From NCBI GenBank assembly GCA_964358765.1, contig CAYHPN010000001.1, forward strand, positions 27,182 to 91,181: a DNA stretch of 64,000 bases. Direction: 5' to 3'. The notes below the pieces were generated by a model that was not told where the DNA came from, searched no databases, and was given only the letters and a program-made list of their open reading frames with translations. Position numbers and translations under genes: made by a program. This stretch comes from Candidatus Woesearchaeota archaeon. Its GTDB lineage: Archaea; Nanobdellota; Nanobdellia; Pacearchaeales; GW2011-AR1. How positions within the stretch are numbered: the first letter of the stretch is position 1; every line of letters begins with the position of its first letter. This document shows, piece by piece, positions 55,301-60,601 of this stretch.

Positions 55301-56856
55301 TAAACTTTGAATGCAAACAATGGGAACCTCCTAGGAATGTGGATGCTAGTGATTGCAGATCGTGCGGAAATGATGATTTAAGTGATGGACAAAATAGTTT
55401 CCCATGTAATAAATATTCCTGCCAGGCTCTTGGGCAAGATTGCCAGTTTATAGAAGGAAGTGAGATACCTGGGAAGGGAGGAATATGCGAATATGCTCCG
55501 CAAAGTGATACTCAAGCGCCATTAATAACTGGACTTAGAGAAGAAATATTATCTGAGAATTTTGAATATGATAATGTTGACTTAAATGGCGAGAGAATAT
55601 TTGAAGTAAGAAAAACTGGCGAAGAGTGCTTGGATCAATTTGAAAGCGTTACTTTTGGATTTAATACAAATGAATATGCAACTAAATGCGCAATAAGTGG
55701 AAGTCCTAGAGAAAACACAGATATGATGGTTGCACTAAGTTCTGGACTAAATCATAGCTATACATTTAATTCAAGAAATTTAGATGCTTTAGGAGTTGTT
55801 GGACTAAAAGAAGAAGAAAGAAATGACTTTCAACTCTATTTAGTATGCCAGGATATAAGAGGAAATAATAATATTGCAAATGAATATATTGTAAAGATGT
55901 GCGTCATACCTAGAGATTTGACTCCAACTTTAGTTTTGAATGGTGATGAGTTAAATGATTTATTAATTGCAAATAATGCCAGAAATAAAACTGTGTCAAT
56001 TAATTTGAATGAACCTAGTGAGTGCAGATGGGATTATGCAGAGAAAACTTTTGACGAAATGGAAAATAATATGCAGTGCAATAGTAATATATTGCAATGC
56101 AGTACACTAATTCCTTTTGAAGAAGATGAAAAACAAATATGCATAAAATGCAGAGATCATCCAGAGTGGCAGGGAACTGAAAGAGAAAACGAAAGAAATG
56201 AAAATACTCAGTGTGTTGATGCATCCTTAATAAGAACAAATGCGTTAGAAATTACATCAATAACTCCAAATAATGAAACAATAAAGAAAGGAGCTAGCGA
56301 TTCTTCAATTGAGATTGTTGTAAACACTGCAGGAGGAGCCAATTATGGAGAAGCAGATTGCTATTATGATTTGGATAACTCTGGAAGGATATTATTTATG
56401 GAAACAGGAAATAGAGAAGAGCATAAACAAAATATTGGAGCAGGAACTTCAAGACTAGATGAAGGAAACCATAATTTGAAAGTATCATGCCAAGATAACG
56501 TAGGTAATAAAGCAGAAATTGAAACTACATTTAAATTAGATATTGATATGGTTGCTCCAAAAGTAGCAAGAATTTATGCCCAAGGCAATAGCTTAAATTT
56601 GATTGTAGACGAATCTGCTAATTGCGCATTTGTAAATAGTAAGCCAACGAATTCTAGTATATGCGAGTTTGATGTTAAAAAATGCTCTGAGATTAATGGA
56701 TGTGGAGAAATGAGTATTGATTTTACAAATGAAAATTATACAAAGTTTAGCGCCCCTTTTGATATTGGCAAAACATATTATATAAGATGCGTTGATGAGT
56801 ATGGAAACCAGCCTAGCCAATGCAATGCTAAAGTTATCAAAGGAATTTTTGTTTAA
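52369..56856 (+). CDS. Giant (1495 aa) Cys-rich surface/membrane protein. It has an N-terminal anchor, a Cys-rich ectodomain, an internal Gly/Ala/Thr-rich 4-TM bundle and a C-terminal region with three CxDxxGN beta-sandwich-like repeats.
   Basis: The N-terminal anchor is IEAIIQIVLLITAMFAFSYFI. The ectodomain carries dozens of Cys residues (aa ~165-700). The hydrophobic Gly-rich block at aa ~800-965 (nt ~54780-55270) has four helix-length segments. The C-terminal repeats end in YLVCQDIRGNNN, LKVSCQDNVGNKA and YIRCVDEYGNQP, which is HYR/Ig-like. Confidence 0.7.
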   Translation: MKREKNILKIEAIIQIVLLITAMFAFSYFIERIFDLSSGIGIVSAQGTSGTQTAGLTNEELTTLRQGLANYPGTNQELNNTLIDLERNGYLSRSDFTNAEIVSRAINDSYNDYNSDIDSGNTANTWHNPFSTLIQSFIGNAEISGGDIQLGLYDSTGGLKMCAQTKNGRLCQPFASNICNDNCKENCIDVELTTDVLPDDNECKLGLCYDSDEGSCESRSPKTACVENNGDWYKTGDATGEGLCRRGCCIINDQALFLTNKQCEKRSASLGFELGGDNAIFNSDINEEPACIAEAYNRRNANLDGACTFPHEDGGKLDCKFVKGDECSDIGGIFNAGKLCSNSELNTRCTKSNSTNCVEGLDEIYWIDSCGNRENIYEGSDQDKKDLSWFNGLVKAKNESCILSSGGNNIANQGTCGNCDRFRGSICSNKTMEPIVQKLNDDDQNFVCLDMGCYDDNGKRIREHGESWCAYQSKIGINGLLGEQNNNMVVTSLMNIAIPQIGGGILGGDRAVDTPGSSHFRATCLNGKIQTSACETGRREICVESRSEISGSDKEFSQAVCRKNRAMECFQYNPGKTESQAIGLAGPQKAWKILRTKLQLTCGLDPDCFVLDVNLASGKDDTFKFSYCAPRYKLGFDLENSESGKQFCSQASQKCTAVFVKGIGGWECKANCDCVEGSDPSSAKPSQKFVKEMGRFCSSLGDCGSQVSYTGKFPGGKGYSVTMGKDPLKQLLQFGSSFSFSDMLGMNSMLTIGDDIPRRGEYIPANDTKPGGMLEGGFNNFLKDQGILGIFSMIDSQLNNLMSQGGGGNYGVPDISGVGSQQSSLIAPGLVAGGAGGAMLGYGYLTSGLTAETTTIVTGTIVESGVAGETAATVAVTETTATSLAGFGGALFGAGIGAATVGFLIKMLGIGPGLSPGVAYAMMGTGAIGGAVVGYQAFTGGSAAIAANPIGVILFVAVIAILIIFKFMGVGEVEEVEVNFECKQWEPPRNVDASDCRSCGNDDLSDGQNSFPCNKYSCQALGQDCQFIEGSEIPGKGGICEYAPQSDTQAPLITGLREEILSENFEYDNVDLNGERIFEVRKTGEECLDQFESVTFGFNTNEYATKCAISGSPRENTDMMVALSSGLNHSYTFNSRNLDALGVVGLKEEERNDFQLYLVCQDIRGNNNIANEYIVKMCVIPRDLTPTLVLNGDELNDLLIANNARNKTVSINLNEPSECRWDYAEKTFDEMENNMQCNSNILQCSTLIPFEEDEKQICIKCRDHPEWQGTERENERNENTQCVDASLIRTNALEITSITPNNETIKKGASDSSIEIVVNTAGGANYGEADCYYDLDNSGRILFMETGNREEHKQNIGAGTSRLDEGNHNLKVSCQDNVGNKAEIETTFKLDIDMVAPKVARIYAQGNSLNLIVDESANCAFVNSKPTNSSICEFDVKKCSEINGCGEMSIDFTNENYTKFSAPFDIGKTYYIRCVDEYGNQPSQCNAKVIKGIFV

Positions 56857-57611
56857 AGTTTGAATTTAATATAATGTTTTAATAAAATAAAAATGGTGAT
56901 AAATAATAAAATTAAACTAAGCCACTGCCCAGCTGAAAGATATAAATAAGAAACATCGTCTCTTAAAAAATCAAGAAGGAATCTGCCTAGGGAAATGAAA
57001 AATAAGAATAGATAAAAAATAAAACCTTCTTTATATTTATTTGATTTTATTTTTAAGAGGAAAAATAATAACGCAAATCTCCCAATTGCTGAATAAAGTT
57101 GAATTGGGTATCTGCAACCTTGGATATCTGGAAAATTAATGCATATTGATGAAGTTGTGGTTTTTCCTAGGATTTCTGCATTTATTAAATTAGCAATTCT
57201 TCCTAATACTAAAAATAATGCAGCAGGCAAGATTATTACATCTGCTAAGCGCAAGAAATTAATTTTATTTTTTTTACAATAAAATAAAGAGAAAACTATT
57301 GCTCCAGCTAGACCTCCATGAAAACTTAATCCTCCGTTCCAAATGGATAATAATTCGTTTAAATGAACGGAAAAATAATCCAGATCCCAAAATACAAAGT
57401 GAAATATTCTTGCCCCGATTAAAATGGATATAAACAATAAAATAACGTAATTATAGACTTGTTCTTTTGATAGAGGAATTTCTTTATCCTTAGACGCTTT
57501 TAGAAGCACAAATAAAAGAGTGAGGAAACCTAAGATATAAACGAGAGAATAATAAGTGAGCTGTATAACTCCTATATGGAAGATAATTGGATTAATGTTT
57601 AATGTGAACAT
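56853..57611 (-). CDS. lgt: Prolipoprotein diacylglyceryl transferase (Lgt), bacterial type
   Basis: IWNGGLSFHGGLAGAIVF matches the Lgt signature GGLxxHGG. LVLGRIANLINAEILGKTT matches GRxxNFxNxExxG. It has seven TM helices and is 252 aa. Confidence 0.8.
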   Translation of the reverse strand: MFTLNINPIIFHIGVIQLTYYSLVYILGFLTLLFVLLKASKDKEIPLSKEQVYNYVILLFISILIGARIFHFVFWDLDYFSVHLNELLSIWNGGLSFHGGLAGAIVFSLFYCKKNKINFLRLADVIILPAALFLVLGRIANLINAEILGKTTTSSICINFPDIQGCRYPIQLYSAIGRFALLFFLLKIKSNKYKEGFIFYLFLFFISLGRFLLDFLRDDVSYLYLSAGQWLSLILLFITIFILLKHYIKFKL

Positions 57612-57694
57612 TCAACTAAGAGAAAATTGAATATTATAAAGATATATTAAAATCGGATACAAAGATTTATAAATATGTAAGTACATGTAAGTAC

Positions 57695-57892
57695 ATGAGT
57701 GATAGAAAGCGAATGAAGAAACTAAGAAAGAAAAGAATAGCGTCTGTTGAGAAACAGGTTGAGAAGCACGAAGATAAAATCAAGAATGAAAAGGGTAGAA
57801 AAGACACCACTAAAGACTATTGGAGAAAAGAAATTGATGAGAAATTCTTAAAACAAATTGATGAAGATGAAGAATATCTGGAGGATAAATAA
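57695..57892 (+). CDS. Small highly charged coiled-coil protein
   Basis: It is 65 aa and K/E/R/D-rich. A TATA-like gatttataaatat lies about 25-30 nt upstream. Its stop abuts the next gene. Confidence 0.35.
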   Translation: MSDRKRMKKLRKKRIASVEKQVEKHEDKIKNEKGRKDTTKDYWRKEIDEKFLKQIDEDEEYLEDK

Positions 57893-59844: not shown

Positions 59845-59867
59845 AGTTTCATATAAATAAAGATAAT

Positions 59868-60161
59868 TTATCTGTTGCCAATTCTTTGAGATAAATATTT
59901 TACAGTTTGTGCAATATTTCCATCTATTAAATTCTCTGCATCTTCATCCGAAATATGTAAATCGTAAGCATCTTCAATTTTTATTATTGCACTAATAGCA
60001 TAAATACCTCTACAACCGCCTTCATATTTATCACAAAATGCTCCTATTGTAGGTGAATTTAATACTTCTTGCACATCTATTTCTTTTCTTAAAAAGCCGC
60101 CTACTGAATTAGTTACCAATCGGGCAATACCGTCCTTAGTTATTTCTCTTGTTTGTGTCAT
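59868..60161 (-). CDS. Hypothetical protein (97 aa) upstream of the decarboxylase
   Basis: The ORF lies 23 nt upstream of the decarboxylase start on the same strand. I recognised no family. Confidence 0.35.
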   Translation of the reverse strand: MTQTREITKDGIARLVTNSVGGFLRKEIDVQEVLNSPTIGAFCDKYEGGCRGIYAISAIIKIEDAYDLHISDEDAENLIDGNIAQTVKYLSQRIGNR

Positions 60162-60316
60162 TTTACGTCTCCTCCTTTCACTGCTCTTTCTTGATATTGA
60201 TTTGTGTTTTTCATATATTTGACAGAAAGTAGAAGTATTTAAATCTTTCCATCTGTCACTACTAGTACATTACTACAAAACGAAAGATTTATATAGTAGT
60301 TCTGACTATATAATAT

Positions 60317-60601
60317 ATGAAAAAAGAAACAAAAACACTTGCAAAGATATTGGGTCCTGTAATGCTTGCAATTAGCGGATGCCAGACACTTGATAGAAAA
60401 CCGGAATATAAATTTGGAGAATGTCAAATGTCTACAAGAGCATATAGATATTTAGTAAATGAAGTTGGTGCTGAAAAAATGCTAGATAGTGAAGAAAATG
60501 AACATTTCTGCAGGCTGTTTGCTGAAAGAACTAATTACTTAACACTAAGAAAAGTAAAAAAAGGATTGCAGGCTTTAGCTGCTGGATCTCCGCATCAATA
60601 G
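60317..60601 (+). CDS. Small putative lipoprotein (lipobox ISGC)
   Basis: The N-terminus MKKETKTLAKILGPVMLAISG/C has a basic n-region, a hydrophobic h-region and then I-S-G-C, fitting [LVI][ASTVI][GAS]C. Confidence 0.45.
   Translation: MKKETKTLAKILGPVMLAISGCQTLDRKPEYKFGECQMSTRAYRYLVNEVGAEKMLDSEENEHFCRLFAERTNYLTLRKVKKGLQALAAGSPHQ

Follow-up and report, generated by a model that had tools for sequence, protein, structure and literature searches.

In Haloferax volcanii, AliA and AliB (arCOG02177 and arCOG02178) are components of archaeal lipoprotein lipidation (PMC12462473; PMC13631571). Their authors regard AliA as a possible, very distant derivative of bacterial Lgt, the prolipoprotein diacylglyceryl transferase, with two conserved arginines (PMC12462473; PMC13631571). 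Archaeal homologues of Lgt or of signal peptidase II (Lsp) are said not to exist (PMC12462473, 2025); a follow-up from 2026 builds on that study (PMC13631571), and the AliA/AliB account in both papers rests on this premise. We analyzed a stretch of 64,000 nucleotides (hereafter the window; positions 27,182 to 91,181 of contig CAYHPN010000001.1, assembly GCA_964358765.1) from the metagenome-assembled genome (MAG) of a Candidatus Woesearchaeota archaeon. It encodes a 252-aa protein of the Lgt family with seven transmembrane helices (lgt, 56853-57611, minus strand), recognized by profiles, residues, predicted fold and orthologues, and, about 2.7 kb from the lgt start, a small open reading frame (ORF) with a lipobox. 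Our reading, which we consider likely, is that the protein is a genuine and probably active Lgt of a DPANN archaeon and belongs to a lipoprotein pathway that spans its class. The window's genus would be Lgt-only, having regained the gene laterally, with about eight candidate substrates and a lipid donor that is probably scavenged or remodelled.

The Lgt protein and its archaeal host

Both Lgt signatures are present in the 252-aa ORF, GGLSFHGGLAGA at residues 93-104 and GRIANLINAEILG at residues 137-149. Against Pfam PF01790 the protein scores 180.9 bits, well above the cut-off of 24.9, and the match spans profile positions 1-238 of 240; with 152 bits it also exceeds the cut-off (118.9) of the NCBIfam equivalog TIGR00544. 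Among solved structures, phmmer found a sole relative, E. coli Lgt (5AZB/5AZC, E = 2.8e-25). The same protein emerged from structure prediction: an AlphaFold2 model built with 52 homologues as input (predicted local distance difference test 93.4, predicted template modelling score 0.88) had 5AZB as its single significant Foldseek match in the PDB (template modelling (TM) score 0.83, E = 5.5e-13, root-mean-square deviation 3.3 Å). Orthologues occur in 11 other genomes of the genus, at 46-70% identity.

Residue conservation was assessed by aligning the window Lgt with E. coli Lgt and 61 other Lgts. All of E. coli Y26, H103-G-G, D129, G142-R143, N146, N149, E151, G154, R239 and R246 are kept; in the numbering of the window protein the two motifs read H98-G-G-L and G137-R138-I-A-N141-L-I-N144-A-E146-I-L-G149, so that the signature is complete. 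The residues reported from mutagenesis as required for activity in E. coli, Y26, R143, N146, G154, R239 and E243, are retained as Y21, R138, N141, G149 and R210, with E243 conservatively replaced by D214, an aspartate that is universal in the genus and in the clade formed by the rest of its order. The sole other differing position is Y235, which is I206 in the window Lgt. R138, N141, E146 and G149 are invariant among 52 archaeal homologues, and a requirement for R143 and R239 in E. coli Lgt has been reported (PMC12462473).

With bacterial Lgt the window protein has in common the profile family, the seven-helix fold, the signature G-R-x-x-N-x-x-N-x-E-x-x-G, the residues Y26, H103, R143, N146, E151, G154 and R239 and, presumably, the chemistry on the lipobox cysteine. 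It differs in the substitutions E243 to D and Y235 to I, in a shorter head with a cysteine pair, and in its setting: an archaeal host without geranylgeranylglyceryl phosphate (GGGP) synthase or CdsA, and a genome without Lsp and with only about eight candidate substrates. The protein is about 40 residues shorter than that of E. coli (252 versus 291 aa), mostly in the extracellular head. In this shortened head C157 and C166 are nearly invariant across the archaeal clade (motif WC..F....GCRHP), which suggests a clade-specific disulfide without counterpart in E. coli Lgt. AliA and AliB have the same job, the lipidation of the lipobox cysteine of exported proteins in an archaeal membrane. The window protein is clearly an Lgt and not an AliA. 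All sequence and predicted-structure tests were passed and, at that level, confirm the Lgt assignment far beyond chance; the ORF probably encodes a genuine, active enzyme.

The window lies on contig C1 of a MAG of 1.75 Mb (69 contigs, 87% complete). Mis-binning was suspected because this contig carries a gene of the sigma-70 family, an ECF-like protein of 172 aa with Sigma70_r2 and r4 domains (31006-31524, minus strand). If C1 were a mis-binned bacterial fragment, for instance from the candidate phyla radiation, its Lgt would be an ordinary bacterial one. Consistent with such an origin, no 16S rRNA was found in the MAG with either archaeal or bacterial models, and a marker scan of most window ORFs turned up none of the classic archaeal genes for information processing; its matches were TrmB, an ATP-dependent ligase and, weakly, a deoxyhypusine-synthase-like protein, which are not decisive. 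The 5S rRNA and tRNAs of the contig were too diverged to yield useful matches to closed archaeal genomes or bacterial loci. However, sigma-70 genes like this one are a documented trait of Woesearchaeota, for which mis-binning has been excluded (Castelle et al. 2021, PMC8204110), and the genome itself argues for an archaeal host. The archaeal/eukaryotic ribosomal protein L15e is encoded on contig C3 of the MAG, and the tetranucleotide profile of C1 correlates with that of the remaining genome at 0.999. Two closed archaeal genomes from the class contain homologues of 37% of the ORFs on C1, a share equal to that of the L15e contig (38%; genome-wide 26%). In 10 of the 10 relatives tested, seven of them single-contig genomes, Lgt and L15e are encoded on the same contig. 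The nearest Lgt from a named genome belongs to a Candidatus Woesearchaeota archaeon MAG (50% identity), the named proteins among the 120 best homologues are all archaeal, and bacterial Lgts are just ~30% identical. We therefore regard a bacterial origin of the contig as extremely improbable; by composition, gene content and linkage, mis-binning is excluded and the organism is placed as a DPANN archaeon of the Woesearchaeota/Pacearchaeota type.

These results agree with much of the initial annotation, which was made from the letters of the window alone. It had called the 252-aa membrane protein an Lgt on its two signatures and, on condition of an archaeal host, had offered two readings of the donor, archaeal ether lipids or host-derived lipids; a bacterial genome, which would make Lgt ordinary, or a protein lacking the essential residues would have spoken against it. 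The profile scores, the residues and the 5AZB fold are in line with the first point, with the catalytic residues kept apart from E243 to D; L15e in the MAG, its linkage to Lgt in the relatives, and the composition and homologue share of C1 bear out the second.

Lgt and Lsp across the class, and lgt in the genus

We surveyed 251 high-quality genomes of the class, each at least 92% complete except the window's own. Lgt (PF01790) was present in 224 and Lsp (PF01252) in 226; 216 genomes encoded both, 8 Lgt only, 10 Lsp only and 17 neither (odds ratio 46, p = 6e-14). Closed chromosomes that also encode archaeal L15e are among those bearing the two genes. The archaeal Lsp proteins keep both catalytic-aspartate motifs, and lsp adjoins lgt in one genome. 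The 120 best database homologues of the window Lgt are 37-70% identical to it, and the named proteins among them all bear the NCBI or JGI annotation 'prolipoprotein diacylglyceryl transferase' and come from Nanoarchaeota, Woesearchaeota or unclassified archaea. The Lgts that co-occur with Lsp in other Woesearchaeota- and Pacearchaeota-type genomes belong to the same archaeal radiation as the window Lgt, which is nested in the main clade of the class. Because the two genes are near-universal and co-occurring, and a closed genome carries a lipobox signal (see below), a lipoprotein pathway of the bacterial type appears to operate throughout the class.

The premise, from which the initial annotation started, that archaea have lipobox proteins but no Lgt homologue is wrong for this class, although it mirrors the current literature. 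We found no paper linking Lgt or Lsp to Woesearchaeota, Pacearchaeota or DPANN, subscription journals being outside the scope of the search. The gap is in the literature; the databases (NCBI PGAP, JGI) already annotate these proteins, and the window Lgt adds one more protein to a known family, in a setting that has been little reported. With Lgt and Lsp near-universal in one large class, the view of archaeal lipoprotein biogenesis changes.

The window's own lineage departs from this pattern. Other genomes of the class have Lsp too, and at least one closed genome among them has a strong lipobox signal, whereas the family of the window is without Lsp. The Pfam model PF01252 had no match in the window genome, where the initial annotation had proposed to look for the enzyme, nor in the family (0/25 genomes in one search, 0/10 in another). 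A clade-specific Lsp hidden Markov model, run with filters off (--max), gave a best E = 0.02 in the window genome versus 2e-54 in the closed relative G044. Within the genus, 12 of 21 genomes have Lgt; the 17 genomes sampled from the other genera of the family have none. By gene content, the window genome is an Lgt-only, few-substrate exception within the class.

Similarity and phylogeny place the lgt of the genus away from that of its relatives. With phmmer, the window Lgt scored 140-200 bits against Lgts of other orders and 60-98 bits against those of its own order's other families, no higher than against bacterial Lgts. Maximum likelihood placed the order's other families in one clade (99/90) and the genus in another (97/94). 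The sister of the genus was the Woesearchaeota MAG (100/97), followed by a genome of family f20 (100/94), and this group was nested in a large clade of other orders (99/91). Forcing the genus together with the own-order clade cost 57.7 log-likelihood units (approximately unbiased (AU) test, p = 0.004), in a comparison picked after the similarity scores had been seen. The Lgts of G018 and G038 also fall outside their own taxonomic clades, which shows that lgt moves within the class. The genus therefore most likely regained lgt by lateral transfer from another order of the class. In the simplest history, lgt and lsp were both lost in the ancestor of the family, and lgt without lsp was regained later, in the genus or its ancestor. 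Since the six named bacterial Lgts in the tree were not monophyletic, neither the bacterial source nor the number of inter-domain transfers can be judged from it.

Under vertical inheritance, the odd position of the genus would be due to Lgt having evolved fast and in a non-canonical way in the order's other families. That clade is indeed unusual at H103, N146 and E151 and has long branches, so that long-branch effects could displace it, and the bacterial sampling of six sequences is thin. We nevertheless find this history unlikely. The genus clade sits several supported nodes deep among other orders (95/98, 100/94, 100/97), all 17 genomes sampled from the family's other genera are without Lgt, the AU test speaks against the grouping, and the misplaced G018 and G038 proteins show the gene to be mobile in the class.

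The own-order clade (L012, L095, L097, L105-L112, L114) deserves a remark of its own. Its members have Y or F in place of H103, mostly C in place of N146, and D, C or V in place of E151; R143, G154 and R239 are kept, and the proteins co-occur with Lsp. They may form a functionally shifted Lgt subfamily.

Substrates, lipid donor and function

Lipobox proteins were counted in greedy ORF sets with a PS51257-like census, which asks for K or R close to the start, a hydrophobic stretch free of charges, a lipobox and, beyond position +1, a polar tail; every residue was counted at +1 as an internal control. The closed, 774-kb genome G044, which has both Lgt and Lsp, carried 12-14 textbook signals among 919 ORFs under the strict pattern (cysteine at +1 enriched 10-12-fold) and 21 against 3.2 expected under the relaxed one (p ~1e-10); across the two patterns this makes 12-21 lipoprotein signals, with cysteine at +1 enriched 7-12-fold. 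The closed, 491-kb genome G099, which has neither enzyme, carried one signal under either pattern. The window genome, with Lgt and no Lsp, had 4-5 strict signals among 2117 ORFs (1.7-2-fold, p = 0.15) and 11 relaxed ones against 6.5 expected (p = 0.07). The footprint of the pathway is present in the class, and the window genome is close to the negative control G099.

About eight candidates in the window genome are individually convincing, among them the 94-aa protein encoded near lgt (60317-60601, plus strand); others lie on contigs C7, C13, C24 and C33. The 94-aa protein begins with MKKETKTLAKILGPVMLAISGC, a Sec-type signal peptide ending in the lipobox I-S-G-C (Cys22), and has further cysteines at C36 and C65 in its mature part; it matched nothing in Pfam or NCBIfam. 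A homologue of 97 aa (P0122, 64% identity) is encoded by the sister species G010, on a contig of a Hainich groundwater metagenome. In P0122 the signal peptide has changed in its hydrophobic core, but the lipobox (L-S-G-C) and the start of the mature part, CQTLDRKPEYKFGECQMS, are retained. This comparison indicates that the 94-aa ORF is a conserved and real gene, its product a candidate lipoprotein that would be lipidated.

A lipobox ORF 2.7 kb from lgt is unlikely by chance because strict lipobox signals are rare (5/2117 ORFs). In G010 the corresponding gene lies ~500 bp from lgt, with a single 154-aa gene between. In the eight neighbourhoods examined, 3 kb around lgt in seven members of the genus and in the Woesearchaeota MAG, strict lipobox ORFs occurred in two independent cases, one in the window genome and G010 and the other in G020, against 0.14 expected (P ~0.009). 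We rejected the notion that these ORFs form one family: the likeness between those of the window genome and G010 and that of G020 is confined to the signal peptides.

Two paralogues of 513 and 514 aa, on C26 (268-1812, minus strand) and C45 (2900-4441, plus strand) of the window genome, are 32% identical overall. Compared directly, they have in common an ILAPLxGxxxSC lipobox signal and a thioredoxin-like CxxC motif, which makes them candidate membrane-anchored extracytoplasmic thiol-disulfide oxidoreductases. A word-based database search for homologues of the C45 protein returned only the query itself. A further candidate, of 210 aa, lies 3.3 kb past the window end (C1 94464-95096, plus strand), inside the exported-protein operon that follows the window. 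It has a relaxed lipobox, GILLNGC followed directly by GDPKK, and is weakly similar to a strict-lipobox protein (LLLAGC) encoded 7 kb from lgt in G010.

On the substrate side, the initial annotation fared unevenly. It had placed the 94-aa ORF and its textbook I-S-G-C signal correctly, and the gene proved real through its homologue. A lack of enrichment of lipobox proteins, which it had listed as evidence against its reading, is what the census found in the window genome. Taken as a whole, its genuine Lgt, archaeal host and real lipobox gene stand; its premise that archaea lack Lgt does not hold for this class, and this genome shows no significant lipobox enrichment.

The lipid donor was approached through a gene search in 23 genomes, comprising the window genome, five others of the genus and further genomes that include nine closed or near-closed ones. 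GGGP synthase was found in 0/23 of these and in 4/4 control archaea; CdsA was essentially absent across the 23 and had no representative in the window genome. Because both are absent, de novo synthesis of either lipid type is incomplete. The window genome does encode a CDP-alcohol phosphatidyltransferase (C46 10481-11080, plus strand), whose best models are pgsA and clsA, below their cut-offs (pgsA 71.7 bits, cut-off 109) and ranked above the archaetidylinositol-phosphate and serine synthases. It also encodes a PlsC-type acyltransferase (C13 21071-21784, minus strand). Similar genes occur in some other members of the genus. The donor is probably a scavenged or remodelled lipid of the phosphatidylglycerol type, with ester and ether forms alike compatible with this gene content. 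The initial annotation had raised a dependence on external lipids, and its suggested inventory makes that angle reasonable: the two synthesis genes are missing, and the PgsA-like and PlsC-like genes are present. The C13 acyltransferase gene lies ~1 kb from a lipobox ORF (C13 22850-23443) with weak similarity to outer-membrane-protein beta-barrels.

In the mechanism we propose, by homology with the bacterial pathway, lipobox proteins exported through Sec would be the substrates of Lgt. The enzyme would take the diradylglyceryl group from a phosphatidylglycerol-type lipid and attach it to the thiol of the +1 cysteine, so that the protein is held at the membrane's outer face. In the genus, Lgt would serve a handful of substrates (about eight), including the 94-aa protein and the two thioredoxin-like CxxC paralogues. 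The signal peptide, with Lsp missing, would either stay as a second anchor or be removed by another protease.

Several points weigh against this reading, besides the post hoc choice of grouping for the AU test and the tree with only six bacterial sequences on which re-acquisition rests. Lgt is missing from 9 of the 21 MAGs of the genus (71-95% complete) and hence is maybe dispensable. The lipobox enrichment in the window genome is not statistically significant (p = 0.07-0.15), and this, together with the missing Lsp, leaves room for few substrates or a changed role. The window genome is 87% complete, which makes absences from this single genome weaker than the family-wide pattern. Several of these points would also fit a relic, or a gene repurposed after the loss of Lsp and most lipoproteins, either dispensable or acting on a target other than the lipobox. 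The absence of Lsp from the whole family, the non-significant enrichment, the patchy occurrence in the genus and the replacement of Y235 by I in the genus are all in keeping with that view, to which we give a minor share of our belief. Set against it, 12 species of the genus whose Lgts have diverged to 46-70% identity retain the fold and all catalytic residues, which indicates purifying selection on lgt. In addition, about eight good lipobox signals are present, the lipobox is kept in orthologues and paralogues that are otherwise 32-64% identical, and lipobox ORFs cluster beside lgt. An active Lgt with few substrates remains our preferred interpretation of the genus.

A bolder version is possible, though we hold it to be doubtful. 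The class would run a complete Lgt and Lsp pathway that replaces AliA/AliB or stands beside it, and Lgt would draw on bacterial-type, ester-linked phosphatidylglycerol, obtained from bacterial partners or by PlsC- and PgsA-like remodelling. Ester-linked phosphatidylglycerol is proposed as donor because there is no GGGP synthase and archaeal ether lipids would not be made. The genus would then be a natural experiment without Lsp, its regained lgt serving the small cysteine protein and the CxxC oxidoreductases, which in turn service the giant cysteine-rich surface proteins encoded beside lgt (see below). If this were true, these archaea would carry genuine bacterial diacylglyceryl lipoproteins.

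The enzyme offers a direct experimental handle, being small, related to a bacterial protein of solved structure and open to standard complementation assays. The finding bears on the actual membrane lipids of lipid-auxotrophic DPANN cells and on the question whether bacteria support the life of some of them. With Lgt alone and few substrates, the lineage of the window genome is suited to studying the role of Lgt where Lsp is missing, and it provides evidence for the lateral movement of lgt among these archaea.

Genes around lgt

Convergent with lgt, and overlapping it by 4 nt at the stop codons, is the gene for a 1495-aa cysteine-rich secreted or membrane surface protein (52369-56856, plus strand) that has a signal or anchor at its N-terminus and lacks Pfam domains. 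It is preceded, as in all cases seen, by a 260-aa gene (51585-52367, plus strand) that has no Pfam match and is co-linear in G010 and G020. Synteny covers the unit of 260-aa gene, giant cysteine-rich protein and lgt in G010 (57% identity) and G020 (36-41%), but not in five other members of the genus. In both G010 (L100) and G020 (L102) the 260-aa gene and the ~1500-aa cysteine-rich protein are present as a tandem duplicate, and in three species the module adjoins lgt. We treat the 1495-aa protein as genomic context of lgt rather than a proven partner. A functional link between Lgt, the small cysteine lipoproteins, the CxxC lipoproteins and the giant cysteine-rich proteins is an idea.

Between lgt and the 94-aa lipobox gene lie four genes of mixed orientation (57695-60161), encoding a 65-aa ORF, a 259-aa nucleotidyltransferase, a 371-aa pyridoxal-phosphate-dependent decarboxylase and a 97-aa protein that weakly resembles an acyl carrier protein (ACP). 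All four are missing from the corresponding interval of G010 and thus are inserted in the window relative to that species; they are probably unrelated to the function of lgt. The nucleotidyltransferase (57893-58672, plus strand) has weak HalB, MntA and ANT-like matches and an AbrB/DUF2080-like N-terminus, and is directly preceded by the highly charged 65-aa ORF (57695-57892, plus strand); the two could be a toxin-antitoxin or defence-type pair. The minus strand (58729-60161) carries the decarboxylase, whose likeness to MfnA or histidine decarboxylase stays below the cut-offs, and after it the 97-aa ACP-like gene; together they may belong to another carrier-protein-linked pathway. An FkbH/ACP/MBOAT cassette is found elsewhere in the same genome, at 4.6-13.2 kb.

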